In this document: positions 38,064-60,959 of the stretch, piece by piece
Position numbering within the stretch: position 1 is the stretch's first letter
Layout: each line of letters starts with the position of its first letter
Source: an uncultured virus (IMG/VR IMGVR_UViG_2061766007_000276)
Taxonomy: Duplodnaviria > Heunggongvirae > Uroviricota > Caudoviricetes
DNA: 64,000 nt
IMG/VR virus record: IMGVR_UViG_2061766007_000276
Strand: one strand, 5' to 3'
Program-made: the position numbers and the translations under genes
Notes under the pieces: generated by a model
What the model was told of the DNA's origin: nothing
Seen by the model: the letters and a program-made list of their open reading frames with translations, nothing else
The model's database searches: none

Positions 38064-38345
38064 ATGGAAAAAATCATTATCGACGAGGATTTGAGGAACA
38101 AGATCGAACGTTGCCATTACGAGTACACAGCGTTTGTGAACGTCGAGAAGACGTATCTCGACTCGCATATGCTCGACGACGATACGACAGCTCTCGACGG
38201 CGTCGTCTTCAAAGCCTACCACGAGAAGCTCGTCAAGGCGCTGAAGGACTATGAAGAGGCTAAGTCTGAGATGACGGAGAAGTACGGCATCGGTAACGCG
38301 AGTTGGAGCCTCGACTTCAAGACATGCGAGGTCGAAATTGTATAA
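38064..38345 (+). CDS. CXXX-repeat modification system small partner protein
   Basis: 93-aa helical protein ending WSLDFKTCEVEI, lying between substrate and maturase as in the CXXX-repeat systems I recall (TIGR04116-like). Confidence 0.7.
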   Translation: MEKIIIDEDLRNKIERCHYEYTAFVNVEKTYLDSHMLDDDTTALDGVVFKAYHEKLVKALKDYEEAKSEMTEKYGIGNASWSLDFKTCEVEIV

Positions 38346-39705
38346 GGTAGAAAGCGAGGAAGCCTACCAGGACATGGTACATAGGCTTTACCCTGAACTA
38401 CACATAGGAACCAACACAAGCTGCAATGCTAACTGGATTCTCACCCGCAATGTCACATGGCAGGTAACCGATGCGTGCAATCTAGCTTGCACCTACTGCT
38501 ACCAGCATAACAAGGGCACGCGTAGGATGAGCAAGGAAACGGCGTTTGCTTTCGCAGACATGCTCCTCGACGAGGATATGTGCGGAAGCTACATCAACCT
38601 TGAAAACTCACCTGGCATCATCCTTGAATTCATTGGTGGTGAACCGTTTCTCGAAGTTGAGCTGATTGACCAGACTATTGACTACTGGGTCAAAATCACA
38701 TCGGAAAGAAACCATCCGTGGGCTGTTAGATTCATGGTGTCGATTTGCTCGAATGGAGTACTCTATCGCACGCCTGAAGTGCAGCGGTTCATACAAAAGC
38801 ACAAAGACCACCTTTCGCTTTCAGTAACCCTTGACGGCACGAAGGCCCTGCACGATTCATGCAGGGTCTTCCCTGATGGCAAGGGGAGCTACGACCTTGC
38901 CGCAGACGCATGCCTCGACCTCATGCAGAAGAGGAGCGAGCCTGGCACGAAGATAACCATTGCCCCTGGCAATGTGGACAAGCTCTACGAGGCGCTGAAG
39001 TTCATGGTCATGTTCGGTTACAGGGAGATTAACGCTAACTGCGTCTATGAGAAGGGTTGGACGGAAGAGCATGCAACCGAGCTCTACAGGCAGATGAACG
39101 CGTTCAGCGACTATCTCTTCGAGCACGATATGGAGGAAGAGGTCTACTGCTCACTCTATGAGGAAGAGTTCTTCTGTCCGAAGCCTGAAACCGATCTTGA
39201 GCTCTGGTGCGGTGGTGACGGGATGATGCTTTCATGCGATCCTGACGGGTATTTATATCCGTGCATACGGTTCATGGAGTCAAGTCTTGGAGACAACGTG
39301 CCTCCAATACGGATCGGCCATGTCAGTCGTGGGATAGGGAAGCTCCCAGAAGAGGAAGCGTACATTCATTGCATGGATTGCATTACACGTAGGACTATGA
39401 GCTCAGATGAATGTTTCTACTGCCCTATAGCAAATGGATGTAGTTGGTGCGCCGCATACAACTACGAAGCGAACGGGAAGCTCGACAGCAGGGCAACGTT
39501 CATATGCCCCATGCACAAGGCGAGGGCATTGGCGAACGCTTACTTCTGGAACATGTACCACATCAAGCACGATGACGGGAAACGGTTCAAGGTCCACGTC
39601 CCGAAGGATTGGGCAGTACCGATCATCGGGGAAGAGGAATACGATTGGCTGCTTTGGCTCAGCCAGGGAGGTCGGAGAACTACGACGACCGCTCGACGAG
39701 CGTGA
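38338..39705 (+). CDS. Radical SAM/SPASM peptide maturase, CXXX-repeat target family
   Basis: CNLACTYC, FIGGEPF, SVTLDG...HD..R, and SPASM cysteines WCGG...YPCIRF...CFYCPIANGCSWC...FICPMH. Confidence 0.92.
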   Translation: MYKVESEEAYQDMVHRLYPELHIGTNTSCNANWILTRNVTWQVTDACNLACTYCYQHNKGTRRMSKETAFAFADMLLDEDMCGSYINLENSPGIILEFIGGEPFLEVELIDQTIDYWVKITSERNHPWAVRFMVSICSNGVLYRTPEVQRFIQKHKDHLSLSVTLDGTKALHDSCRVFPDGKGSYDLAADACLDLMQKRSEPGTKITIAPGNVDKLYEALKFMVMFGYREINANCVYEKGWTEEHATELYRQMNAFSDYLFEHDMEEEVYCSLYEEEFFCPKPETDLELWCGGDGMMLSCDPDGYLYPCIRFMESSLGDNVPPIRIGHVSRGIGKLPEEEAYIHCMDCITRRTMSSDECFYCPIANGCSWCAAYNYEANGKLDSRATFICPMHKARALANAYFWNMYHIKHDDGKRFKVHVPKDWAVPIIGEEEYDWLLWLSQGGRRTTTTARRA

Positions 39706-44083: not shown

Positions 44084-45508
44084 ATGACAGGCAGCAATCG
44101 ATCTTCTCTGATCGGGTATTTATCGAGCATAGCCGATGCCATACGAGCTAAAACCGGCGTATCGGGAACCTTCAAGCTTTCCGACATGCCGGGAGCCATA
44201 ACGAATATGCAAACAGNNNNNNNNNNNNNNNNNNNNNNNNNNNNGAAGGCCATCTTCATAGACAGGACGGCCACCGGCTACGAGAACTCGGAACTGACTA
44301 CCTTAAACGACTGCACCTTCTACGGGCAAAGCGGATTCGTTTCGGTGTCGCTTCCCGAGTGTGTTAGAGTTGGTAGCTTTGCTTTTATGAACTGTGTCTC
44401 GTTAACGTCTGCATACATTCCGAAATGCGAGTATATAGGAAACAGTGCATTTTGCAGCTGTTCGACTTTAACGAGCGTGTCTTTTCCCGTATGTTCTTAC
44501 GTGGGCGGTTCAGCATTCCTGTATTGCTCGCAGTTAAATTCTGTGCATTTGCCTTCTTGCTCCGTGGTAAATGCTGGTGCGTTCTGGGGTTGCCGTGATT
44601 TGACGTCAATTTCGCTTCCCGCAACGTCTAGCATATATAATAACGCTTTTTACCAATGCAACAACTTATCGTATATATCGGCTCCGAGTGTCAACCATTT
44701 AGGAGGCTATGCTTTTTACAATTGCTCCAAGCTAGTTTCCGTATCGTTCCCTTTGTGCAGCAGCATCTCAGACAACACATTTGCTGGTTGCCAGATTTTG
44801 AGCTCCGTATATTTCCCAGAGTGCACGTATATTGGCTACTATGCGTTTTCATCGTGTTCCGCCTTAGCCGGAGTGATGTCATTTCCGAAGTGTCTCGTAG
44901 TATCTTACGCAGCATTTTCCAGCTGTTCAAACATAACTTCGGCGTATTTTCCTGCATGCACTTCTGTAGGATCTTACGCGTTTGCCCAGTGCACGAAGTT
45001 GACCTCTGCGAATTTTTCGGCTTGTCTGAGCGTTTCCAGTTCCGCGTTCTGCAGTTGCACGGCATTGGTTTCCGCATACTTTCCGAATTGCACTTACATA
45101 GGAAGCCATGCTTTCAGCGGCTGCACTGCGTTGAAGACGGTGAACATCTCGAAATGCACCTCCCTGAACTACTCCGCGTTTCACAATTGCACCCAGCTGA
45201 CCACGATATCCCTTCCTGTTTGTGGCTGGGNNNNNNNNNNNNNNNNNNCCCTGAGCTTGCCCAAATGCTCGCAGGTAGAAGCGACTTTTATCGATTACTG
45301 TACATCTTTGAGGTCCATTTACCTGATGTCCACGGCAATGGTGTCGATAGTCGGCATGGCGATATATCCTTTTACAAACACTACGCTTTGCAAGAGTAGT
45401 TATCTGGGAAATGTTTATGGATCTCTTTACGTGCCTAAGAGCTTGTTGGCAACGTATAAAGCAAACTCCGTATGGAAAGCTATTTCCTCGAGGATGGTTG
45501 GGGTATAA
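44084..45508 (+). CDS. BspA/TpLRR-type leucine-rich repeat protein
   Basis: About 14 repeats of 22 aa (IGxxAFxxCxxLxSVxFPxC), C-terminal LYVPKSLLATYK...W. More AT-rich than neighbours. Confidence 0.85.
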   Translation: MTGSNRSSLIGYLSSIADAIRAKTGVSGTFKLSDMPGAITNMQTXXXXXXXXXXKAIFIDRTATGYENSELTTLNDCTFYGQSGFVSVSLPECVRVGSFAFMNCVSLTSAYIPKCEYIGNSAFCSCSTLTSVSFPVCSYVGGSAFLYCSQLNSVHLPSCSVVNAGAFWGCRDLTSISLPATSSIYNNAFYQCNNLSYISAPSVNHLGGYAFYNCSKLVSVSFPLCSSISDNTFAGCQILSSVYFPECTYIGYYAFSSCSALAGVMSFPKCLVVSYAAFSSCSNITSAYFPACTSVGSYAFAQCTKLTSANFSACLSVSSSAFCSCTALVSAYFPNCTYIGSHAFSGCTALKTVNISKCTSLNYSAFHNCTQLTTISLPVCGWXXXXXXXLSLPKCSQVEATFIDYCTSLRSIYLMSTAMVSIVGMAIYPFTNTTLCKSSYLGNVYGSLYVPKSLLATYKANSVWKAISSRMVGV

Positions 45509-52868: not shown

Positions 52869-54002
52869 ATGACCGCCATAAAATTCACATTTGAGGACGG
52901 TTCCGAGGCGTTGGCCCATTACGGCAAAAAGGGCATGCACTGGGGTACCTGGAACGACGAGACTCGCCAGAAGTATGCCGCCAATCCCGAGTACATGCCG
53001 GAAAACACGGAACGCAGAACCAACGAGCAGCTGTACAACAACTTCGCCAACGCTATGAACCAACATGCCGCCAACCAAGGGGCAAGCGCCGGGCAAGGCA
53101 CCCTTTACAAGGATCCGGAGACCAGGGGCAGGAACCGCATGGGGCTGAACGAACTTCGAAGAGCCCAGAACGCCAAGGATCCCGTGAAGCAGGCGAGCAA
53201 CGCTTTGAACGCAGCGCTCAAAGGTGCAAAGGATTTCGGTGGACAGGTTGCAAAATCCGTATCGGATATCACGAAGCATGCTTCCCGTGCGGTATCAGAT
53301 GCCGGCAAATCCGTAGTCGACTCCGGAGCGAACGCGATCGACAGCCTGTTTGGCACCAAGTTCGGCTCGAAAGCGCAAAACAAGGAACGTGAGAAAGAGC
53401 TTACGAACCGCTGGAACAAGAAGCGTAGCGCCAACAAGTACGCGCAGGAGAACTCCGACCGCAACAAGGTCCTGACCGCCGAGGCCGAATGGCGACAGAC
53501 CCAGAAGAAGGGCAAGGAATGGGCCAGCAAGCAGGCTAGGGAGGACAGCGCCAAGAAGTATGCGGAAGAGAATGCCAAGAAGAATGCCGAGCTGCTGAAG
53601 CAGGCCGAGTCCAGGCGACAAAGCAAGGAAATGCGAGAACGCGGCGAGCAGAAGAACCTACAGAAGAAGTATTCCGACAAGATCCAGAAGAAGAGCGCAC
53701 AGGAATACAACCGCAAGGCGGAGAAGATCGCGAAGAACAAGCAGGCTATAGAAAACGATTACAAGGCAGAGAAAAGGGTCAATGCAGGGGAGAACCTCGG
53801 AGATTACAAGTCTAAGAAACTCGCCAACCTGAGGACCGACGACTTCTACGGGAAGAACGGCAAAGCCGCTCAAGCATCCGAAGCTTATAGAAGACGCAAT
53901 CTTCGCGACAAATCGGAAGCTAACATGAAGAAAAATGGCTATTTCCGAGGCCCCGATGGCGTTTGGCGCAAGAAGACCCAGTCTCTTCGCAAAGGGCATT
54001 AG
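52869..54002 (+). CDS. Basic coiled-coil protein with FTFEDGSEALAHYGKKGMHWG leader
   Basis: 377 aa; leader nearly identical to ORF 54465. Confidence 0.8.
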   Translation: MTAIKFTFEDGSEALAHYGKKGMHWGTWNDETRQKYAANPEYMPENTERRTNEQLYNNFANAMNQHAANQGASAGQGTLYKDPETRGRNRMGLNELRRAQNAKDPVKQASNALNAALKGAKDFGGQVAKSVSDITKHASRAVSDAGKSVVDSGANAIDSLFGTKFGSKAQNKEREKELTNRWNKKRSANKYAQENSDRNKVLTAEAEWRQTQKKGKEWASKQAREDSAKKYAEENAKKNAELLKQAESRRQSKEMRERGEQKNLQKKYSDKIQKKSAQEYNRKAEKIAKNKQAIENDYKAEKRVNAGENLGDYKSKKLANLRTDDFYGKNGKAAQASEAYRRRNLRDKSEANMKKNGYFRGPDGVWRKKTQSLRKGH

Positions 54003-54062
54003 CCCATCGCGATATTATCAGCTTTTAAGGTGGAATGCCATTACTGGAGAAAGGAGCATGGC

Positions 54063-54392
54063 ATGAAGCTTAAGGATTACGATCAATCCATAGACGTGAT
54101 GGACAAGGAGGTGGAAGATATCCTCGATCGTCTCGACAAGATGGATCCGACCACCGAGGAATACGAGAAGGCGGCTAGGAACTTGAAGTTGATCCAGGAG
54201 GCCAAGCAGGTCGAGGTGCGAAACAAAAGCGAGCATCTCAACGGCAAGGTCCCGGCATGGGTGACTTCGATAGCCGGATCCGCCATAGCGGTCATATTCG
54301 GGGCCGTGGTCATGAAGGTCGAGAAAGGAGGGGGCGTCATCTCTTCTCAGGCAATCAACGTCTGGGATAAAGTAGTTCGGAAGTTAGGCTAG
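54063..54392 (+). CDS. Hypothetical protein with C-terminal TM helix (cassette gene)
   Basis: SD AGAAAGGAG; own promoter-like motif and terminator. Confidence 0.75.
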   Translation: MKLKDYDQSIDVMDKEVEDILDRLDKMDPTTEEYEKAARNLKLIQEAKQVEVRNKSEHLNGKVPAWVTSIAGSAIAVIFGAVVMKVEKGGGVISSQAINVWDKVVRKLG

Positions 54393-54414
54393 CGACTTGC
54401 TAGCAGGCATTCGG

Positions 54415-54453
54415 GAAAGGCTGGGATATTCACCCGGCCTTTCTTTTTTCTTT
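54415..54453 (+). terminator. Intrinsic terminator
   Basis: GAAAGGCTGGG-ATATTCA-CCCGGCCTTTC followed by a T-run. Confidence 0.85.
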
Positions 54454-54464
54454 CAAGGAGAGAC

Positions 54465-55178
54465 ATGGGAAACTACAAATTCACATTCGAAGACGGCTCC
54501 GAGGCGTTGGCCCATTACGGAAAGAAGGGCATGCACTGGGGCGAGTGGAACGAAGAGACCCGTCGGAAGTACGAGGCTGATCCCGAGTCGAAGCCTTCCC
54601 TTGAAAGGGATGGAAACGGGAATATCATATCCAGGCAAACGTTCGAAGTTCATAATTCGGACGGAACGGTGGCTCCGTGGACGAACAACCACACCATGGA
54701 GAGGGATCCTCGCACAGGAAACTACTACGATACCAAGAGTTTGGGAGCAGGCATATCCCGTGGTCTGGATAATTTGAAATCGGACATAGAAGATCTTATA
54801 AGAGACCCTGGATACAAGTTGAGCAGCGTTGCCAGCAAGACCGTCCAAGAAGGTAAGAAGCTTCTGGACGGAATTCTTAACCGGGTTGATGAGGAAGCTC
54901 ATTTTCTTGTCGAAGGAAATAAACCAGAAGCGCGAATAGGTTCGACGCAGGCCAAGAAACTGGAAGCGGAGGGGAAACCCTACACAAAAGTTTACGGGTA
55001 CAATTACCATTACGATAAGCCGGCAAATGATACCAAAACTTTTAACGAGACGCTGAAATATGAAAAGGAGCAGAACAGGCAGACCGACGAGCGGGTAAAC
55101 AAAAGAAACCGAGAGCAGACCAGCCGATACAAGAACTCCACGGCCAAGAAGCTCCGCAACCTTGTGGGCCTCGAGTAA
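54465..55178 (+). CDS. Protein with FTFEDGSEALAHYGKKGMHWG leader
   Basis: 237 aa; leader paralogous to ORF 52869, body unrelated. Confidence 0.8.
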   Translation: MGNYKFTFEDGSEALAHYGKKGMHWGEWNEETRRKYEADPESKPSLERDGNGNIISRQTFEVHNSDGTVAPWTNNHTMERDPRTGNYYDTKSLGAGISRGLDNLKSDIEDLIRDPGYKLSSVASKTVQEGKKLLDGILNRVDEEAHFLVEGNKPEARIGSTQAKKLEAEGKPYTKVYGYNYHYDKPANDTKTFNETLKYEKEQNRQTDERVNKRNREQTSRYKNSTAKKLRNLVGLE

Positions 55179-55235
55179 TTCGCAATTTTATCACCTCCTT
55201 TTACGATGGTAAAAGCTACCGGAAGGAGTGATATT

Positions 55236-55433
55236 ATGGAGAACATGAGCAACGCCGCGAAGGCGATCTGCATGGTTCTGGGAGGACTGGCTCTGGTGGG
55301 CCTGCTGGTGATCACCGGACCCATTTGGATGGGTTTAGGAGCATTAGCAGTAGGCCTATTGGAGATATTTCTCCCGATCGTGCTGATCGTGATAGCGGTA
55401 GTGGTGGTCTACAATTATCTGAAAAACCGATAG
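55236..55433 (+). CDS. Small membrane protein (cassette gene)
   Basis: SD GAAGGAG; two hydrophobic helices. Confidence 0.7.
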   Translation: MENMSNAAKAICMVLGGLALVGLLVITGPIWMGLGALAVGLLEIFLPIVLIVIAVVVVYNYLKNR

Positions 55434-55444
55434 GTACCATCATG

Positions 55445-55476
55445 GAAGGGGATGACAACAAGTCCCCTTCTGTTTT
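55445..55476 (+). terminator. Intrinsic terminator
   Basis: GAAGGGGAT/GTCCCCTTC followed by TGTTTT. Confidence 0.7.
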
Positions 55477-55595
55477 CTGCCGAAAAAGCAGAAAGCTCAA
55501 ACGAAGAGCCCGCGATAACATCAACTGCTCTTCGTTTTTCTCCTCGCATATTTTTCACCCCCTTTTACGATAAGAAAACCTGAGTGAAAGGGGAT

Positions 55596-55817
55596 ATGAT
55601 GTTGGAAAGTGTTTTCGTGCTAACGATAGTGTTCGGAAAGATATTTATCGGAATTGCGGCATTGGTAGGCTTGCCTATCTACGTCGCACGGATCATTATA
55701 AGGTTGACCCGTGCGAACAGATGGGTGTCCTCCCATGACGGAGTGCTGATAGGATCGGACGAATTTTTCGCATGGTGCGAAAAGAAAGGAGAAGATCCCA
55801 ATAGGTATTTTATATAA
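55596..55817 (+). CDS. Small membrane protein, paralogue of ORF 57235
   Basis: TM helix plus RW...HDG.LIGS.EFF.WC.K.G.DP. Confidence 0.75.
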   Translation: MMLESVFVLTIVFGKIFIGIAALVGLPIYVARIIIRLTRANRWVSSHDGVLIGSDEFFAWCEKKGEDPNRYFI

Positions 55818-55904
55818 GGATTAGACTCGAGCGACTTCGCTTAAATTGCAGGTCGCTCGAGGTTTCGAAGCCTTTATTTTTTCGCATATTTTACAGTTTC
55901 TATT

Positions 55905-56067
55905 ATGAGAGGAAAGAACTAACGAGAAGTGGTAAAGAGCCCACGGGCTGTGATAGCCGGCGATGCCTACATGGCTAACCGTCTTGATCGGCACAGGTGA
56001 AAACAACTGGACGTCTCGTCCGGGGCAACATCTAGGTAGGCCGCAGGTCGTTTAGTTTTTCTCCCGT
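55905..56067 (+). ncRNA. Candidate multi-stem ncRNA in an ORF-less cassette
   Basis: Follows the motif at 55882. The 5' end pairs with 56048-56067; inner stems GCCTAC/GTAGGC, GGCT/AGCC and CTGGACG/CGTCCGG. No SD-led ORF. Confidence 0.6.
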
Positions 56068-56134
56068 CTATATTTTTTCTCCCGCGATATTTTCACCCTG
56101 CTTTATAGTATGGTCTACTAGAAAGGAGAATACT

Positions 56135-56494
56135 ATGAACGAGAAGATCGAGGAACTGAAGGAATCCGCTAGGGTTTTCGGAAGGAAGGCGAAGGACCAG
56201 GCATGCGACGCTGCCCGCAAGGCGGGGGCATTCGTAGCCAGGAACAAGGAGATGATTGCGATATCTGTGCCTGTCGCCGTCGCTGCGATTCAATCTGGAC
56301 GTACGGTCCTGGTTAACCGCAGGACGAAGCGGGAGCGCAACAGGATTGACAACACCTACTACGATCCGGCCACGGGCTTCCATTGGGAGCTGCGACGCAA
56401 GGCCACCAACGCCGACCGGGCCGAGATCCTGAAGCGGAAGAAAGCGGGGAAGGAGACTTACGAGATTCTGAGAGAGTTGAATCTCATCAAGTAG
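56135..56494 (+). CDS. Basic hypothetical protein (cassette gene)
   Basis: SD AGAAAGGAG; 119 aa; YDPATGFHWELRRK. Confidence 0.8.
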   Translation: MNEKIEELKESARVFGRKAKDQACDAARKAGAFVARNKEMIAISVPVAVAAIQSGRTVLVNRRTKRERNRIDNTYYDPATGFHWELRRKATNADRAEILKRKKAGKETYEILRELNLIK

Positions 56495-56500
56495 GCTTAT

Positions 56501-56530
56501 AGGGGAGTCCCATCAGGGGCTCTCCTTTTT
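56501..56530 (+). terminator. Intrinsic terminator
   Basis: GGGGAGTCCC/GGGGCTCTCC plus TTTTT, running into the next motif. Confidence 0.8.
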
Positions 56531-56584
56531 CGCATATTTAACAGCTCCTTCAACGACGAGGAATTCGACAGAGAGGAGAGCTGC

Positions 56585-56761
56585 ATGGAGATCTGGATCG
56601 GGTTGGTGGCCTTGGTATTGACCGGCATGTTCTTCGCGGCGCTGAATTGGCAGTGCCGGCAGGACGAGCTGGCGTACCGGGACTACGAGCTCAGACGCCA
56701 GGCTGCGAAGCTCAACGGAGCGGCGCATTCCGACGTCGAATGGGAAGTTGCCTATTTCTAG
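56585..56761 (+). CDS. Small membrane protein (58 aa; not in the ORF track)
   Basis: SD AGGAG; MEIWIGLVALVLTGMFFAALNW... Confidence 0.7.
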   Translation: MEIWIGLVALVLTGMFFAALNWQCRQDELAYRDYELRRQAAKLNGAAHSDVEWEVAYF

Positions 56762-56846
56762 GCTCTTCCTTTTTCTCTTCCTTTAATTTTTCTCCCGCGA
56801 TATTTTCAAGCCTTCTGATGAGTGTAATCAAACGAAAGGAGACAAG

Positions 56847-57140
56847 ATGTCGAACTGGGAGGTTTATCCTGAGAATTGGATGGAGCAGGGAAACCGCTGT
56901 ATGATCAGCTACATCGAAGGATTGGAAAATCAGGGCTGGGCTATCGAGTGCTCGAGCTTCAATCCCGACCCTCTGTTCGGAAGGCCCGAATGGGAGGCGG
57001 AGTACGAAGCCGGATACCGGTACTACGTTCTGAAATACAATCTGTTCGATGGGCGGCGTGTGGAGAGTTTTTACAAACATCCAAGGGAAGCTCAGGAGGC
57101 TTTCGAGAAGATGCGAGATCCTCTCGGAAAGCACTCATGA
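56847..57140 (+). CDS. Hypothetical protein (cassette gene)
   Basis: SD GAAAGGAG; 97 aa. Confidence 0.75.
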   Translation: MSNWEVYPENWMEQGNRCMISYIEGLENQGWAIECSSFNPDPLFGRPEWEAEYEAGYRYYVLKYNLFDGRRVESFYKHPREAQEAFEKMRDPLGKHS

Positions 57141-57143
57141 GGC

Positions 57144-57171
57144 GCGGGCCCTTCGGGGCCTGTTCCTTTTT
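57144..57171 (+). terminator. Intrinsic terminator with cUUCGg loop
   Basis: GCGGGCCC-TTCG-GGGCCTGT plus T-run. Confidence 0.8.
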
Positions 57172-57234
57172 CNNNNNNNNNNNNNNNNNNNNNNNNNNNN
57201 ATGAGAAGGAACCAAGAAGAGAAAGGAAAAAACG

Positions 57235-57450
57235 ATGGAGAATCTGGTAATCATGTTGATGGTCTTCGGACCGATCGTTATCGGCGTTATCGGCGTTGTA
57301 GCCATTCCGGTGTGGTTGATTCGGGAATTCGCAGTGAAATCCCCGCGTCGGCGCAGATGGATTGACGCACACGATGGGCACCTGATAGGGTCGGAGGAGT
57401 TTTTCGACTGGTGCAAGAAGGAAGGAGTTGATCCTGGATATTATTGGTAA
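57235..57450 (+). CDS. Small membrane protein, paralogue of ORF 55596
   Basis: TM helix plus RWIDAHDGHLIGSEEFFDWCKKEGVDP. Confidence 0.75.
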   Translation: MENLVIMLMVFGPIVIGVIGVVAIPVWLIREFAVKSPRRRRWIDAHDGHLIGSEEFFDWCKKEGVDPGYYW

Positions 57451-57571
57451 TCCGATCAGACTCAAGCGACTTCGCTTAGATTGCAGGTCGCTTGAGGTTT
57501 TTCGGTACTCTAATTTTTCGCAAATTTGCAAAGCTTTTAACGGAGTTGATCCTAGGACGAAAGGAGCACCT

Positions 57572-57736
57572 ATGAAGGAGACTGCCGAAACCCGTAAGGA
57601 ATACTGGGAAAACCGGGAGGCGGAGAAGGCCGAGAAGAAGGCCCGCGTCCGCTCGATGGTCGATGCCGGATATTCCAGGAAGGAGGTGAGCGATCTCACA
57701 GGTCTCTCTGAGGCTGTCATCAGGACCATGCTCTAA
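57572..57736 (+). CDS. Small helix-turn-helix protein (54 aa)
   Basis: SD GAAAGGAG; GYSRKEVSDLTGLSEAVIRTML. Confidence 0.7.
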   Translation: MKETAETRKEYWENREAEKAEKKARVRSMVDAGYSRKEVSDLTGLSEAVIRTML

Positions 57737-57809
57737 GGTATGGGGCCCGCGATAGCATCAACGGCCCTTTTCTTTTTACCTATTCGTCATTCGCAGAGAG
57801 GGGGCATCA

Positions 57810-58004
57810 ATGCAGGCGATCTACGACGCACCGAGTTCCGACAAGTTCGAGGCCATGGCCAAGGCCGTCGGCGATATCTACCATCCGAATTACTTCTACG
57901 CAGGGCGCAACCGCATCGTGGCCGAAGGCTCTCTCATGGATCACGTAAAGGCCGAGAAGCGCCTTAAGGCCAAGGGCGTGGAGCACAGCTTCCGCCTCAT
58001 CTGA
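57810..58004 (+). CDS. Hypothetical protein (64 aa)
   Basis: SD GAGGGGG; typical codon usage. Confidence 0.65.
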   Translation: MQAIYDAPSSDKFEAMAKAVGDIYHPNYFYAGRNRIVAEGSLMDHVKAEKRLKAKGVEHSFRLI

Positions 58005-58060
58005 TTCGCATATTTTTCCGCTCCTTTTACGAGATCTACAGTCTAGAGAAAGGAATCGAA

Positions 58061-58267
58061 ATGGTACGTTACTACGAGGACTACACTAGGAAGTGCGCCC
58101 ACGAGAATCAGAAGGAACACGGGTACGTGTTTACCATCGAGCAGATTCGTGATGTCTGCGAGCTGGTAAAGGTAGACCGCGTTCCGGACGGTTCGTTTGG
58201 CGACAACGAGTGCAACCTCTGGGAAGTGTTGCACGATTACTTTAGGAAAGGAGAACGGATCTCGTAA
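58061..58267 (+). CDS. Hypothetical protein (cassette gene)
   Basis: SD AGAAAGGA; motif upstream, terminator downstream. Confidence 0.7.
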   Translation: MVRYYEDYTRKCAHENQKEHGYVFTIEQIRDVCELVKVDRVPDGSFGDNECNLWEVLHDYFRKGERIS

Positions 58268-58274
58268 TAGAATT

Positions 58275-58303
58275 CGGGAGTCCGTCAAGGGCTTCCCGTT
58301 TTT
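58275..58303 (+). terminator. Intrinsic terminator
   Basis: CGGGAGTCC/GGGCTTCCCG plus TTTTT. Confidence 0.75.
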
Positions 58304-58361
58304 CTCCTCGCGTATATTTCATCTCCCTTAACGGAACTGAACCCGATAGAAAGGAGCGAAG

Positions 58362-58628
58362 ATGAAGGAGTACAAGAGGAAGAACGTCAAGATTACCGTC
58401 GGGCAGGTTTGCGTGGAGGACGCCTACGATGCGGCCGTTCTGCGGGAGATGGTGGACGAGATCGTTCCCCAACGCCAGTATATTTACGGGCAAGAGGACA
58501 TGATCTACTATGTCACCATCGTGTGCGGGACGCGTTCGGAGTTGGAAGGCGTTTCCAACCTGTTACGGGTGCTCGACGAGCTCGGAATCTACTACGAGAC
58601 GGATTTCGAGCTCCCGACGAAGGTTTAG
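58362..58628 (+). CDS. Hypothetical protein (cassette gene)
   Basis: SD AGAAAGGAG; 88 aa. Confidence 0.75.
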   Translation: MKEYKRKNVKITVGQVCVEDAYDAAVLREMVDEIVPQRQYIYGQEDMIYYVTIVCGTRSELEGVSNLLRVLDELGIYYETDFELPTKV

Positions 58629-58844
58629 TCTCGAGTTCAGGAGGATCTAATCAGGTCCTCCGGGCTTTTCCCAGCCGTTATCCGTATATTCTCCCTATTT
58701 GTCTTTTGCCTGGTCAACGGATTGCTGTGACGGCTTTTAAGACTCGTTTGGAAACGGGACTGGTACTTGTAAGGCTGCTAAGCGTGTACGGACGCGATAT
58801 TTTCAACGTGCTTTATAGTATAGGGCCGATGAAAGGAGAAAATC

Positions 58845-59135
58845 ATGGCCAATTTTGACGACGTCAAGTTTCTAGTTCATTGTGACAAGAAGAACATGAG
58901 GACATTGATCGACATGTACGTCTACGACGGTCCGTTCATGATCGCTGACGATTATCAAGCGAAAACGCGTTGCTCCGACAAGGCACGCGATATCGTGGAG
59001 AGAGGCGCCAACGGCATGGCGACGATCGAACAGGTGAGCACGTTGATCTGCTGGACCGGGATCGTGTTGCAAATAGGAATTGGACTTGGTAAAACGGTCT
59101 ACAAATTGGCCCGCTTCGTAAAGCGGCGCCTATGA
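58845..59135 (+). CDS. Hypothetical protein (cassette gene)
   Basis: SD GAAAGGAG; 96 aa with hydrophobic C-terminus. Confidence 0.75.
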   Translation: MANFDDVKFLVHCDKKNMRTLIDMYVYDGPFMIADDYQAKTRCSDKARDIVERGANGMATIEQVSTLICWTGIVLQIGIGLGKTVYKLARFVKRRL

Positions 59136-59141
59136 GGGATC

Positions 59142-59167
59142 AGGACCTTCGGGTCCTTTTCCTTTTT
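59142..59167 (+). terminator. Intrinsic terminator with cUUCGg loop
   Basis: AGGACC-TTCG-GGTCCT plus T-rich tail. Confidence 0.8.
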
Positions 59168-59217
59168 CGCGTATATTTCAACCTTTTTAACGGTACGACG
59201 ACGAGAAAGGAGTCACT

Positions 59218-59493
59218 ATGGAAGAGAAGCAGTTCGTCTGGGTGGTCGAACGAATCGACTGGGACCAGGACGTGGACGGTCTCCGGCTTTACTGGGAGGA
59301 GAGGAAGATCATGGGCGTTTACAGCTGCGTGGACGACGCGAGGGCGTTCGTCGAGCGCAACGCTGTGATATCCCACGTCCCGTATCCGCTCAGGTGGCAC
59401 GGGACCGGCAAGGTCGTGTATTCCGGTCACGAGGTGTCCGAGCATCTCGACGAAGGAGTTCGCTACGAACTCCACTACACGGCGTTGTACTAG
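59218..59493 (+). CDS. Hypothetical protein (cassette gene)
   Basis: SD AGAAAGGAG; IMGVYSCVDDARAF. Confidence 0.75.
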   Translation: MEEKQFVWVVERIDWDQDVDGLRLYWEERKIMGVYSCVDDARAFVERNAVISHVPYPLRWHGTGKVVYSGHEVSEHLDEGVRYELHYTALY

Positions 59494-59498
59494 GGATT

Positions 59499-59528
59499 CG
59501 GGGGTCCGTCAGGGCCTCCGGTTCTTTT
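59499..59528 (+). terminator. Intrinsic terminator
   Basis: CGGGGGTCC/GGGCCTCCG plus TTCTTTT. Confidence 0.7.
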
Positions 59529-59594
59529 CGCAGGTCAGTTCGCATTTTTTTCAGCTCCTTTTACGAAGTACTATTTCACAGGAAAGGAACTACA

Positions 59595-59735
59595 ATGGAG
59601 AATTTGTGGGATTTCGAAGAGGCTATTATGAATTGGACTTCGTCCACGGAGCAGGCGCTCCTGGACGTGCTCAACCGTAATACCCCGGAGAAGATCCGGG
59701 ACAAATCCGAAATGGAGGAGGTTTACATGAAGTAA
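59595..59735 (+). CDS. Small acidic protein (46 aa, cassette gene)
   Basis: SD GAAAGGA; MENLWDFEEAIMNW... Confidence 0.65.
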   Translation: MENLWDFEEAIMNWTSSTEQALLDVLNRNTPEKIRDKSEMEEVYMK

Positions 59736-59864
59736 GTACGTAAGCTATTGGAGGCATACGGTAATATTATACCCGAGCCCGGTCAACGGCGTTTGCACGC
59801 CCCTCGGCCTGGGCGCGGCGAAACCGGTGCCTCTAGGCTTTTCGCGGATATTTCAACCCGCATT

Positions 59865-59972
59865 ACGACGAGAGAGCTCGAATCCCGTGCGGAACCTGCA
59901 TATGGAGTGAAAGGGGACGGGGAGGTGCCGAACCGGCCGCGTGGTATTCCGTCGAGTATATTTTTTTTTTCG
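59865..59972 (+). ncRNA. Candidate small structured RNA or structured leader upstream of dUTPase
   Basis: Follows the motif at 59842. GAATCCCGTGCGG (59880-92) pairs with CCGCGTGGTATTC (59937-49); ends in a run of 10 T. Confidence 0.45.
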
Positions 59973-59989
59973 AGAAGGGAGAACCTGAC

Positions 59990-60412
59990 ATGGAATGGAC
60001 GATCTTGGACATCAAGGCAGAGGACGAGAAACTCGTGCCCCAGCACGCCAACGAGGGTGACGCGGGCCTGGACCTCAGGGCCAAGGAACCCGCGCTCATC
60101 AAGCCGGGAAAGACGGTGATGGTCGGGACCGGCCTTAAGATGGCGATCCCAGAGGGATATTTCGGGATGGTGGTCCCGAGGAGCGGCCTGGCGGCCAAGC
60201 ACGGCATAACCCTGGCAAACACTCCGGGCATCGTCGATTCCGGCTACAGGGGGGAGGTCAAGCTCCCTCTTCACAATTTGAGCAGTCGCCCTTATGCGGT
60301 CGACGAGGGGGAACGCGTGGCCCAGATGATCCTGGTGCCGTATATTTCGGCGAGATGCCGGCAGGTCGTCGACCTAGGGGAGACCGAACGCGGAAGCGGC
60401 GGGTTCGGATCC
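59990..60412 (+). CDS. dut: dUTPase (trimeric type; stop codon probably in the N gap)
   Basis: GDAGLDL, PRSG, GIVDSGYRGE, RVAQM, RGSGGFGS. Confidence 0.95.
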
Positions 60413-60440
60413 NNNNNNNNNNNNNNNNNNNNNNNNNNNN

Positions 60441-60815
60441 GATTGGAACGCCGTCCGAGGAACTTGCCGGTTCTTCTGGGGCACTGAGGACTGGCCACAC
60501 GCGAATCAGAGGGACGGATATTGCTACTGCGCCAAGAGGGGCTTCAACTTCGGATACGGGGATGATCCGGTCTCGTGCGAGGGATGCGGGCAGATGCTTC
60601 CCATCACCAGGACCAACCTGGAAGCCGTCGTGGCTTCGGATCCGGACTACGTGGCGAACATCCTGGCCGGGCAACGCGTTTGCGAACAGTGCGCCAACGA
60701 GGAGGCATGCGAGCTCCTCGAGATAGAGCCCGACGACAGGACATGCTTCGAGGGGAACCTGGCCTGGCTGAAATCGCCGGAGGAAGCGTCGAAGGTCGGG
60801 AAGCTCCTCCAGTAG
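60441..60815 (+). CDS. Cys-rich hypothetical protein (start lies in the N gap)
   Basis: Frame open from the gap: DWNAVRGTCRFF...CYC...CEGC...CEQC. Confidence 0.55.
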   Translation, partial: DWNAVRGTCRFFWGTEDWPHANQRDGYCYCAKRGFNFGYGDDPVSCEGCGQMLPITRTNLEAVVASDPDYVANILAGQRVCEQCANEEACELLEIEPDDRTCFEGNLAWLKSPEEASKVGKLLQ

Positions 60816-60870
60816 TTTCGCGTGCATTTGTCAACCCCCAGGTAGGTTCGCGATTTTTTCAACCCGCTAG

Positions 60871-60959
60871 ATGGAAGGAGAGACCGACTGTATCGGTACG
60901 AGCGTTTGATCGAACGCAACGTATGCGGTGTAGCCGGTCTTTTTATTTTTTTTCTCCAT
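60871..60959 (+). ncRNA. Candidate rod-like hairpin RNA in an ORF-less cassette
   Basis: Follows the motif at 60848. Nested ATGGA/TCCAT, AGACCG/CGGTCT, CTGTATCG/CGGTGTAG, GTACG/CGTAT and GCGTTT/GAACGC. Confidence 0.55.

Follow-up and report, generated by a model that had tools for sequence, protein, structure and literature searches.

Complementarity between leaders and stop-codon regions in the small-gene cassettes of an uncultured phage

Described systems and the cassette array

In the hok mRNA of plasmid R1, pairing of the 5' and 3' ends through the fold-back (fbi) element sets both the stability and the translatability of the message, which is inert until its 3' end is trimmed. On the side of the phages, the host-takeover module of Bacillus phage SPO1 is a dense run of small early genes in which promoters and ribosome-binding sites are strong and terminators numerous; to our knowledge, no leader/stop complementarity has been reported for it. 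The short, strongly translated, monocistronic hbs mRNA of Bacillus subtilis carries a 14-bp helix between its 5' and 3' untranslated regions (UTRs), and this helix leaves the Shine-Dalgarno (SD) sequence accessible while limiting the access of nucleases to the leader (PMC5737220; Braun, Durand and Condon 2017). In Staphylococcus aureus, the 3' UTR of the icaR mRNA pairs with the SD sequence itself, a pairing that prevents initiation and generates a site for RNase III (PMC3868564; Ruiz de los Mozos et al. 2013). Finally, T4-type myoviruses contain promoter-early stem-loop (PeSL) cassettes, in which a terminator stem-loop plus an early promoter precedes small genes of unknown function, and recombination between such composites deletes, inserts or replaces genes between related phages (available part of PMC2839356). 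The present study concerns an array of small genes at positions 54000-60900 of a stretch of 64,000 nucleotides of uncultured-virus DNA (IMG/VR record IMGVR_UViG_2061766007_000276; the whole stretch is called the window below), in which the 5' leaders of box-led genes are complementary to the region of their own stop codon.

The array is best explained as a succession of small cassettes with early genes, most of them monocistronic, in the genome of an uncultured rumen siphovirus. The genes between 54000 and 60900, encoded on the + strand, measure 46-119 codons and each possesses a box, a leader, a strong SD sequence and an ATG, except for two box-less genes of 237 and 64 codons. Within a cassette, a box of approximately 28 bp is followed by a cassette-specific leader, the strong SD sequence (mostly AAAGGAG), a short open reading frame (ORF) and an intrinsic terminator consisting of a GC-rich hairpin and a T-run; at about ten of the box sites, a hairpin plus T-run adjoins the box. 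The consensus of the box, which is presumed to be a promoter, is ttCGCrTATTTTTCAnCTCCTTTTACGA in the window and T-run CGCG AAATTTT CA N5 TWTWATG RRA in the family of related arrays dealt with below. A position weight matrix of the box retrieved 14 copies on the + strand (54008-60849), none on the - strand and a single weak match outside the array (at 44630); it left two box sites unscored, namely a masked one (57173-57200) and the one at 57519, which has a spacer shortened by 1 nt. A palindrome, TTCGCGAA, lies within the 5' part of the box, which suggests that a factor binding it would be a dimeric DNA-binding factor. The spacer of the box often reads CTCCTTT(T), as at 55545-55571. This motif is complementary to the SD sequence AAAGGAG of the same cassette, so that masking of the latter would be possible if the motif were transcribed, for example in read-through RNA. 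It also looks like the 3' half of the neighbouring terminators together with their U-tract.

The array of the window has no sequence relation to the SPO1 module. With the PeSL cassettes, as far as the accessible text describes them, it shares a repeated composite of terminator stem-loop and promoter before many small genes, with joints in the box, and judged by its sequence it resembles a PeSL-like set of promoter/terminator cassettes. It differs in that the phage concerned is siphovirus-like (tape-measure and major tail proteins) instead of a T4-type myovirus, and in that the box, whose promoter role is predicted, lacks the sigma-70 consensus that defines PeSL promoters in the text available. 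Furthermore, the string 'complementar' gave no hits in the available text of two PeSL papers (PMC2839356, Arbiol et al. 2010; PMC4122927, Comeau et al. 2014), and a pairing of leader and stop region is therefore not part of the PeSL description given there. The literature on the box strings, on long-range UTR interactions in phage early mRNAs and on PeSL cassettes did not describe the feature either (most subscription journals lay outside this search), and the box strings gave matches in two unrelated papers only. The preliminary description of the window had taken the pairing for an undescribed systematic architecture of phage mRNAs; this holds for the pairing in the literature searched, whereas the cassette array that carries it has a published counterpart in the PeSL arrangement (PMC2839356, available part).

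Cognate pairing in the window and in related arrays

The complementarity between leader and stop-codon region, as well as its specificity for the cognate pair, was confirmed for the 13 coding cassettes of the window. All arm strings reported earlier (13 leader and 13 trailer strings) were found exactly at their positions (26 out of 26; Table 1). RNA duplex energies were calculated for the complete 13 x 13 matrix, whereby the leader was taken from box offset +18 to the ATG and the trailer as the stop codon +/-20 nt. Cognate pairs averaged -18.0 kcal/mol versus -12.5 kcal/mol (sd 3.9) for non-cognate ones, and none of 100,000 permutations reached the observed cognate sum, as the preliminary description had foreseen for a genuine pairing. 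The cognate trailer ranked first in its row for five of the 13 cassettes and among the first two for ten, and the cognate pair was the best of its column in six. The effect held across most of 30 window definitions, persisted under DNA energy parameters and was also found with a strand-neutral DNA scoring of Watson-Crick (WC) pairs only (p = 0.0005). It was carried by the leader upstream of the SD sequence and by the trailer from approximately 15 nt before to approximately 10 nt after the stop codon; it was lost when the trailer was restricted to the part after the stop codon and was weak for the SD-proximal leader alone. Five controls in the window were null (p = 0.13-0.69), namely a direct repeat (leader versus reverse complement of the trailer), the reversed trailer, trailer i-1, trailer i+1 and the cassette's own mid-ORF.

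As reported earlier, the 3' arm overlapped the stop codon or lay at most 1 nt from it in 12 of the 13 cassettes, cassette 1 being the exception, and the 5' arm lay upstream of the SD sequence in 12 of 13, with an overlap in cassette 5. The helix length given at that time (7-12 bp) was too short for several cassettes, in which the helix measured 13-20 nt and reached into the 3' end of the box. Cassette 9, for example, has a perfect 10-bp helix, and 12 out of 13 positions pair when it is extended into the box. Extension into the box as a general rule was rejected, as box offsets 13-24 paired with the trailer no better than with ORF interiors (p = 0.10). Closure, claimed for the 13 coding cassettes, was found in a fourteenth, non-coding box-led unit (55883-56070) as well; three of the coding cassettes (3, 5 and 8) were weak, the pairing of cassette 5 being of a generic SD-versus-terminator kind that is possible in most cassettes.

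The cognate-specific part of the pairing comprised box offsets +24 to +40 on the leader side and, on the trailer side, a stretch that begins 15 nt before the stop codon and ends where the terminator starts (-2.58, p = 1.3e-7, n = 85). The 3' arm ended approximately one base before the terminator, both when the stop codon was 0-5 nt upstream of the latter (n = 14) and when it was 6-11 nt upstream (n = 8; arm end at position -1 relative to the terminator and +10 relative to the stop codon), although the search window ended at the terminator, which possibly biased these positions. No conserved sequence was found around the stop codons. A long-range antiterminator was considered too, and this reading was dropped because neither box offsets 9-22 (p = 0.11) nor leader offsets 23-41 (p = 0.31; n = 85) paired specifically with the 5' half of the stem of their own terminator. 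Cassettes 3 and 7 (55596-55864 and 57235-57502) are paralogues that share 42% identity, a hydrophobic stretch at the N-terminus and near-identical terminators. Each has a helix of its own; they were dropped as a clean compensatory case, since their 3' arms lie at different codons.

Outside the window, the combined box and SD pattern retrieved 72 stretches in IMG/VR and at least 129 in metagenome contigs, many of which contained arrays with as many as 15 boxes per 10 kb, the boxes having the same orientation throughout. The box family is widespread in uncultured phage contigs of 55-82 kb (loci L201-L348, e.g. L202:2000-8000), and some of the record names refer to the human gut. Among the matches listed, an external set of 732 cassettes was delineated (510 unique ones, from 105 loci and 233 protein families). 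These cassettes are independent of those of the window, because they contained only distant homologues (25-62% identity) of six of the 15 window proteins. Taking one representative per family, of which 197 were usable after dropping N-containing or short windows, the cognate energy was -8.43 versus -6.40 for non-cognate partners (mean z -0.72, Wilcoxon p = 1e-8); the cognate partner was in the top decile for 31% of the representatives and beat all 40 non-cognate partners for 10%. When the external comparison was repeated with controls, the cognate difference was -2.18 (p = 1e-11), versus -0.44 for the direct repeat (p = 0.058) and a null result for the reversed trailer (p = 0.5). A scan of whole cassettes with leader offsets +22 to +41 placed the best site within 15 nt of the stop codon in 59 out of 192 cassettes (23.5 expected) and, for strong helices only, in 31 out of 68 (8.0 expected). 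In addition, the external leaders were less complementary to their own mid-ORF than to the ORFs of other cassettes (+0.50 kcal/mol, p = 7e-5) and therefore avoid their own ORF interior, which may reflect either avoided competing folds or shared base composition.

The pairing also recurred in orthologues of different sequence. Native leader/trailer pairs beat orthologue-swapped ones in 27 out of 38 families (p = 8e-4), and cassettes 4, 6, 9, 11 and 12 and their distant orthologues each possessed a helix, made of different letters. For instance, a trailer CCTA faces a leader TAGG in one member of the pair formed by cassette 11 and its orthologue in locus L287, and CTTC faces GAAG in the other. 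Similarly, between cassette 6 and its orthologue in L278, a histidine codon is CAC or CAT opposite a leader GTG or ATG. The orthologue of cassette 1 reached only -10.2 kcal/mol, this being the sole listed pair in which the helix was not kept in both partners. Furthermore, a variant of cassette 12 in sequencing run X3 (A59489G) changes a U-A pair into U.G.

Strand, transcript start and possible role of the helix

Read as RNA, the + strand gave the better pairing compared with the - strand in 10 of the 13 window cassettes, and it did so in the external set too (-2.94 versus -2.28, p = 0.004). Among 33 external helices selected by a strand-neutral definition, the non-WC positions were G.T in 32 cases and A.C in 13, versus a background of 148:147 (Fisher p = 0.010), representing a wobble bias towards the sense strand. 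This bias bears on a possible role of the arms as DNA, namely as cassette-specific inverted repeats in cassette exchange, for example through folding of single-stranded DNA in a mini-circle or a recombination intermediate. Such a role would agree with the persistence of the complementarity under DNA energy parameters and WC-only scoring, with the mini-circles formed by the PeSL cassettes of T4-type phages (available part of PMC2839356) and with the mobility of the cassettes among relatives. Indeed, in contigs of runs X3, X4 and X5, relatives gain, lose and reorder cassettes, the joints being located in the box. Cassette 11 is wholly absent from contigs of all three runs, through a box-to-box joint 58800->59176 with seven shared letters; other letters replace 57172-58005 and 57172-58272 in contigs of relatives; 568 extra letters occur in run X3 exactly at box 59843 (joint 59843->59865); and the order of cassettes is changed at a box by a joint 56537->55544. 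However, homologous exchange between the conserved boxes would explain these joints without any arms, and no strand-changing joint was found in the contigs examined. Moreover, the arms are 200-400 nt apart and different in every cassette, so that no single protein could recognise them, a wobble bias that favours one strand would not be shown by duplex DNA, and the avoidance of complementarity to the own ORF interior suits a folding RNA. A DNA role of the arms is therefore the least probable of the explanations considered and is held to be very improbable.

The best explanation, on which confidence and doubt are evenly balanced, is that each cassette's own mRNA forms a helix between its 5' leader and its last codons, the likeliest role of which would be to shield the ends from decay. 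The leader, from approximately +24 to +40, would pair with a stretch that comprises the last five or so codons and the stop codon and extends as far as the foot of the terminator hairpin. The 5' end would thus be tucked into a stem stacked on that hairpin, and the SD sequence and start codon would be single-stranded at the mouth of a loop holding the ORF. By analogy with the hbs mRNA, both ends of the short message may be protected from 5'-end-dependent and endonucleolytic decay. A terminating ribosome would melt the helix in every round, so that the stability of the message would be tied to its translation. As in hbs, the predicted helix is long-range, message-specific and of approximately 10-14 bp or more, with an SD sequence that is predicted to be open. 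Unlike in hbs, where one host gene is concerned and both arms belong to the UTRs, dozens to hundreds of unrelated phage cassettes are concerned here, each with a sequence of its own, and the 3' arm overlaps the coding end and the stop codon instead of lying wholly in the 3' UTR; a role towards nucleases is proposed here by analogy with that published case.

This explanation presupposes that the transcript starts upstream of the 5' arm. The SD sequence starts at box offset +23 to +27 in 61 out of 416 unique cassettes, with the ATG 7-9 nt further (approximately +36 to +40), so that the RNA of such genes has to start at or before approximately +23. Whole transcripts were folded with starts modelled at given box offsets. 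The minimum free energy (MFE) folds of the window cassettes contained the helix in nine out of 12 cases with a start at +21 (10 out of 13 with cassette 7 added) and in eight out of 12 at +17, whereas with starts at +33 and +36 six pairs were kept in only one out of 12. With a start at +21, the mean probability of being unpaired was predicted to be 0.61 for the SD region versus 0.35 for the whole transcript, and it was higher for the SD region in 12 out of 13 cassettes. Among the external cassettes, closure occurred in 39-40% of the folds for starts at +18 and +24 versus 14-16% for controls with chimeric leaders, in 21% versus 6% at +30, and in 12% versus 4% at +36.

Several observations weigh against a helix in the own message. 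The box ends in a -10-like element, which reads TWTWAT in the family (+18 to +23) and TACGAT or TATAGT in the window (+21 to +26). A sigma-70 start usually follows the -10 element at a spacing of 6-8 nt, which would put the start at approximately +30 to +33 and leave most 5' arms untranscribed. Genes for a T7-type RNA polymerase or for a sigma region-2 protein were absent from five near-complete records of related phages, which hence probably use the host enzyme. The -10 reading is itself imperfect, as an A occurs at the would-be -11 in only 44% of the family boxes, a C occupies the would-be -7, where T is expected, in nine out of 15 window boxes, and there is no -35 hexamer at 17 bp. As to the pairing, a clearly cognate helix was present in only about a third of the external cassettes, which had been defined by automatic rules with uncurated starts. 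The sense bias was moderate, since among 81 external cassettes that were strong on either strand the + strand was better in 47 and the - strand in 34 (p = 0.098). The earlier statement that frequent G-U pairs point to RNA was borne out by the external helices and not by the window alone, in which G.T and A.C numbered three and two. Covariation in orthologues was likewise upheld in part: native pairs beat swapped ones, as mentioned above, whereas a column-wise count in 21 families did not exceed a slid control (two-sided changes 37 paired and 39 broken versus 125 and 177 in the control; p = 0.30), so that strict covariation was not shown. Taken as a whole, the panhandle-like RNA of the preliminary description is the best fit to the G.T excess, to the bound set by the SD positions and to the modelled folds, against which stands the start predicted from the -10-like element.

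An own mRNA that starts past the 5' arm, at approximately +30 to +37, would confine the helix to RNA that reads through the upstream terminator, where it would mark or process such transcripts. For example, it could serve as a site for a double-strand-specific nuclease that trims the ORFs out of a longer RNA, or it could fold so as to silence the ORF downstream or insulate it. This possibility, although the strongest of the alternatives, is considered unlikely. It would accord with the position of the -10-like element (+18 to +26), with the related phages having no polymerase or sigma genes of their own and with the complementarity of CTCCTTT in the box to the own SD sequence. The extended helices, of 13-25 bp with internal loops, would fit it too, their size range matching that of known RNase III substrates. 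Such a role has a precedent in icaR, whose 5'/3' duplex can be a substrate of RNase III, as the available part of the source relates (PMC3868564). However, a start at +30 would cut off the SD sequences that begin at +23 to +27 (61 out of 416). In addition, with a start at 0, by which the whole box is included, local pairing wins, the helix being found in four out of 12 window folds and in 21% of the external ones versus 17% of the chimeric controls. Finally, read-through RNA is expected to be a minority, because each cassette has a strong-looking terminator.

If the helix does form in the own mRNA, its role might be mainly translational, in that a terminating ribosome would re-initiate at its own SD sequence, or that initiation would be throttled. 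In 12 out of 13 cassettes, the 3' arm coincides with the end of the coding sequence and the stop codon, so that every terminating ribosome must open the helix. Moreover, a few bases separate the end of the 5' arm from the SD sequence, and the latter is predicted to be open in the folds. Yet, the 3' arm follows the terminator, as seen in cassette 1 and in the eight cases with spacers of 6-11 nt (for which the search window may bias the outcome), the non-coding unit 55883-56070 closes alike without any ORF, and we know of no mechanism for a through-space hand-over of ribosomes in bacteria. Also, the SD-proximal leader adds little cognate signal, unlike in icaR. Occlusion of the SD sequence of the icaR type does not fit the cassettes, given that the 5' arm lies upstream of the SD sequence in 12 out of 13 and that the SD sequence is predicted to be open, in contrast with the pairing described for icaR. 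Unlike for hok, nothing in the cassettes suggests an inert state. A mainly translational role is thus regarded as improbable, only slightly less so than a role of the arms as DNA. With respect to the functions proposed initially, the placement of the stop codon beside the SD sequence for re-initiation found no support, as the 3' arm tracks the terminator and not the stop codon (cassette 1, 14 nt past it), and protection of the 5' end from nucleases fits better.

Cassette features, gene content and significance of the array

Table 1. Coordinates of the box-led units of the array in the window (all on the + strand), together with the rank of the cognate pair in the 13 x 13 matrix and the number of long-range pairs in the MFE fold.
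Feature	Span	Box	5' arm	ORF	3' arm	Terminator	Cognate rank	Pairs in MFE fold
Cassette 1	54008..54449	54008-54032 (spacer 3 nt shorter than others)	54033-54039	54063-54392	54406-54412 (14 nt past stop, abuts terminator)	~54413-54449 (hairpin + T-run)		7 (start modelled at +21)
Cassette 2	55181..55476	55181-55207	55205-55211 (extendable to 55199)	55236-55433	55435-55441 (extendable to 55448)	to 55476	best in row and column	13
Cassette 3	55545..55864	55545-55571	55570-55582	55596-55817	55802-55813	~55824-55864	mid-rank	11
Non-coding unit	55883..56070		~55910-55925 (segment)	no convincing ORF	~56047-66 (segment)
Cassette 4	56083..56530	56083-56109	56112-56119	56135-56494	56490-56497 (helix extendable as CTTTATA:TATAGGG)	56502-56530	best in row and column	closure only with start modelled at +27
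Cassette 5	56531..56774	56531-56557	56575-56582 (overlaps SD)	56585-56761	56761-56768 (3' half of terminator stem)	stop codon in loop		no closure
Cassette 6	56796..57172	56796-56822	56818-56825 (extendable to 56814)	56847-57140	57131-57138 (extendable to 57143)	to 57172	best in row and column	14
Cassette 7	57173..57502	masked (N run 57173-57200)	57208-57215	57235-57450	57444-57453			13
Cassette 8	57519..57777	57519-57544 (spacer 1 nt shorter)	57542-57553	57572-57736 (box-less second ORF 57810-58004 follows)	57722-57734	to 57777	4 in row and column	no closure
Cassette 9	58007..58303	58007-58033	58027-58037	58061-58267	58257-58267	58275-58303		13
Cassette 10	58309..58669	58309-58335	58332-58343	58362-58628	58622-58633 (alternative partner 58630-58639)	to 58669		11
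Cassette 11	58793..59167	58793-58819	58820-58828	58845-59135	59124-59133	to 59167		10
Cassette 12	59168..59528	59168-59194	59192-59200	59218-59493	59483-59491	59499-59528	best in row	11
Cassette 13	59541..59842	59541-59567	59568-59578	59595-59735	59728-59739		best in column	11
Box copy	59843..59870	59843-59870		dUTPase gene (59990-) ~125 nt downstream
Last box copy in window	60849..60876	60849-60876

The non-coding unit between cassettes 3 and 4 possibly represents a small phage RNA. Its 5' and 3' segments pair with each other, and the 3' segment holds a T-run directly before the next box, so that its closure is like that of the coding cassettes; the unit gave no match to Rfam and no tRNA match. 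As for the intervals between the cassettes, the box-less ORFs 54465-55178 and 57810-58004 come after the terminators of cassettes 1 and 8, respectively; in relatives (runs X3, X4 and X5), by contrast, it is behind cassette 2 that a copy of the 237-codon gene is located. A stretch of approximately 120 nt without box or ORF (58670-58792) separates the terminator of cassette 10 from the box of cassette 11, and the joint between boxes that leaves relatives without cassette 11 begins directly after this stretch. Cassette 13 is followed by a structured stretch of approximately 100 nt (59736-59842; GGAGGCA ... TGCCTC, T-run) instead of a compact terminator, with the box at 59843 coming next. Contigs from one metatranscriptome run matched the bodies of cassettes 3 (55581-55818) and 6 (56833-57134) with full identity; the ends of these contigs (+36 and +37) were not used to position the transcript start, as contigs show neither start nor strand and DNA was possibly present in the library, and no weight is given to the absence of coverage in the rest of the array.

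The phage is siphovirus-like, based on the genes in the rest of the window, which encode a terminase, a portal protein, a capsid-protease fusion, a major tail protein, a tape-measure protein of 2449 residues and an endolysin. A radical SAM domain protein (PHROG 1802, E = 1.6e-62) is encoded among the tail and lysis genes, at 38338-39705. The capsid-protease protein shares 39-57% identity with proteins of uncultured viral contigs; among isolated phages, its best matches were in Gordonia and Arthrobacter phages (43-47%). The DNA of the window was present in bovine gut metagenomes. Protein-based searches of IMG/VR and metagenomes gave no close relatives; five distant relatives retrieved through the capsid-protease protein were all devoid of the box, and a BLAST comparison with isolated phages retrieved nothing related to the window array or to a related one. 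A looser box pattern gave only single matches in IMG/VR, probably by chance. None of the 15 array proteins exceeded the curated cut-off of Pfam, no tRNA genes were found, and the sole match to Rfam was an sbrA-like one below the threshold.

Pairing between the 5' and 3' ends of bacterial mRNAs is known from a few single genes (hbs, icaR and hok); in the array of the window it takes the form of a cassette-by-cassette rule, with another sequence in each case, and among the hundreds of related cassettes in gut and rumen metagenomes about one in three shows it as well. A broader claim, which is held somewhat more tentatively than the own-mRNA helix itself and with doubt slightly prevailing, is that the cassette-specific pairing of leader and stop region on top of the terminator has been selected as an RNA feature of each cassette's own message, and that early 'ORFan' cassettes of phages follow it as a general design rule. 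As such, it would be widespread in this gut/rumen lineage, would co-evolve with the C-terminal codons, and would make very short mRNAs both nuclease-resistant and tied to translation. Through the array, the PeSL concept of mobile promoter/terminator cassettes is widened to phages other than T4-type ones, with a putative promoter box that is unlike a standard host promoter. If the pairing holds true in RNA, it would offer a simple, portable means to stabilise or tune short messages, and it would provide a marker for the boundaries of transcription units in uncultured phages. The last codons of each gene would then be constrained by its leader, which is of relevance to the capture and evolution of new phage genes.

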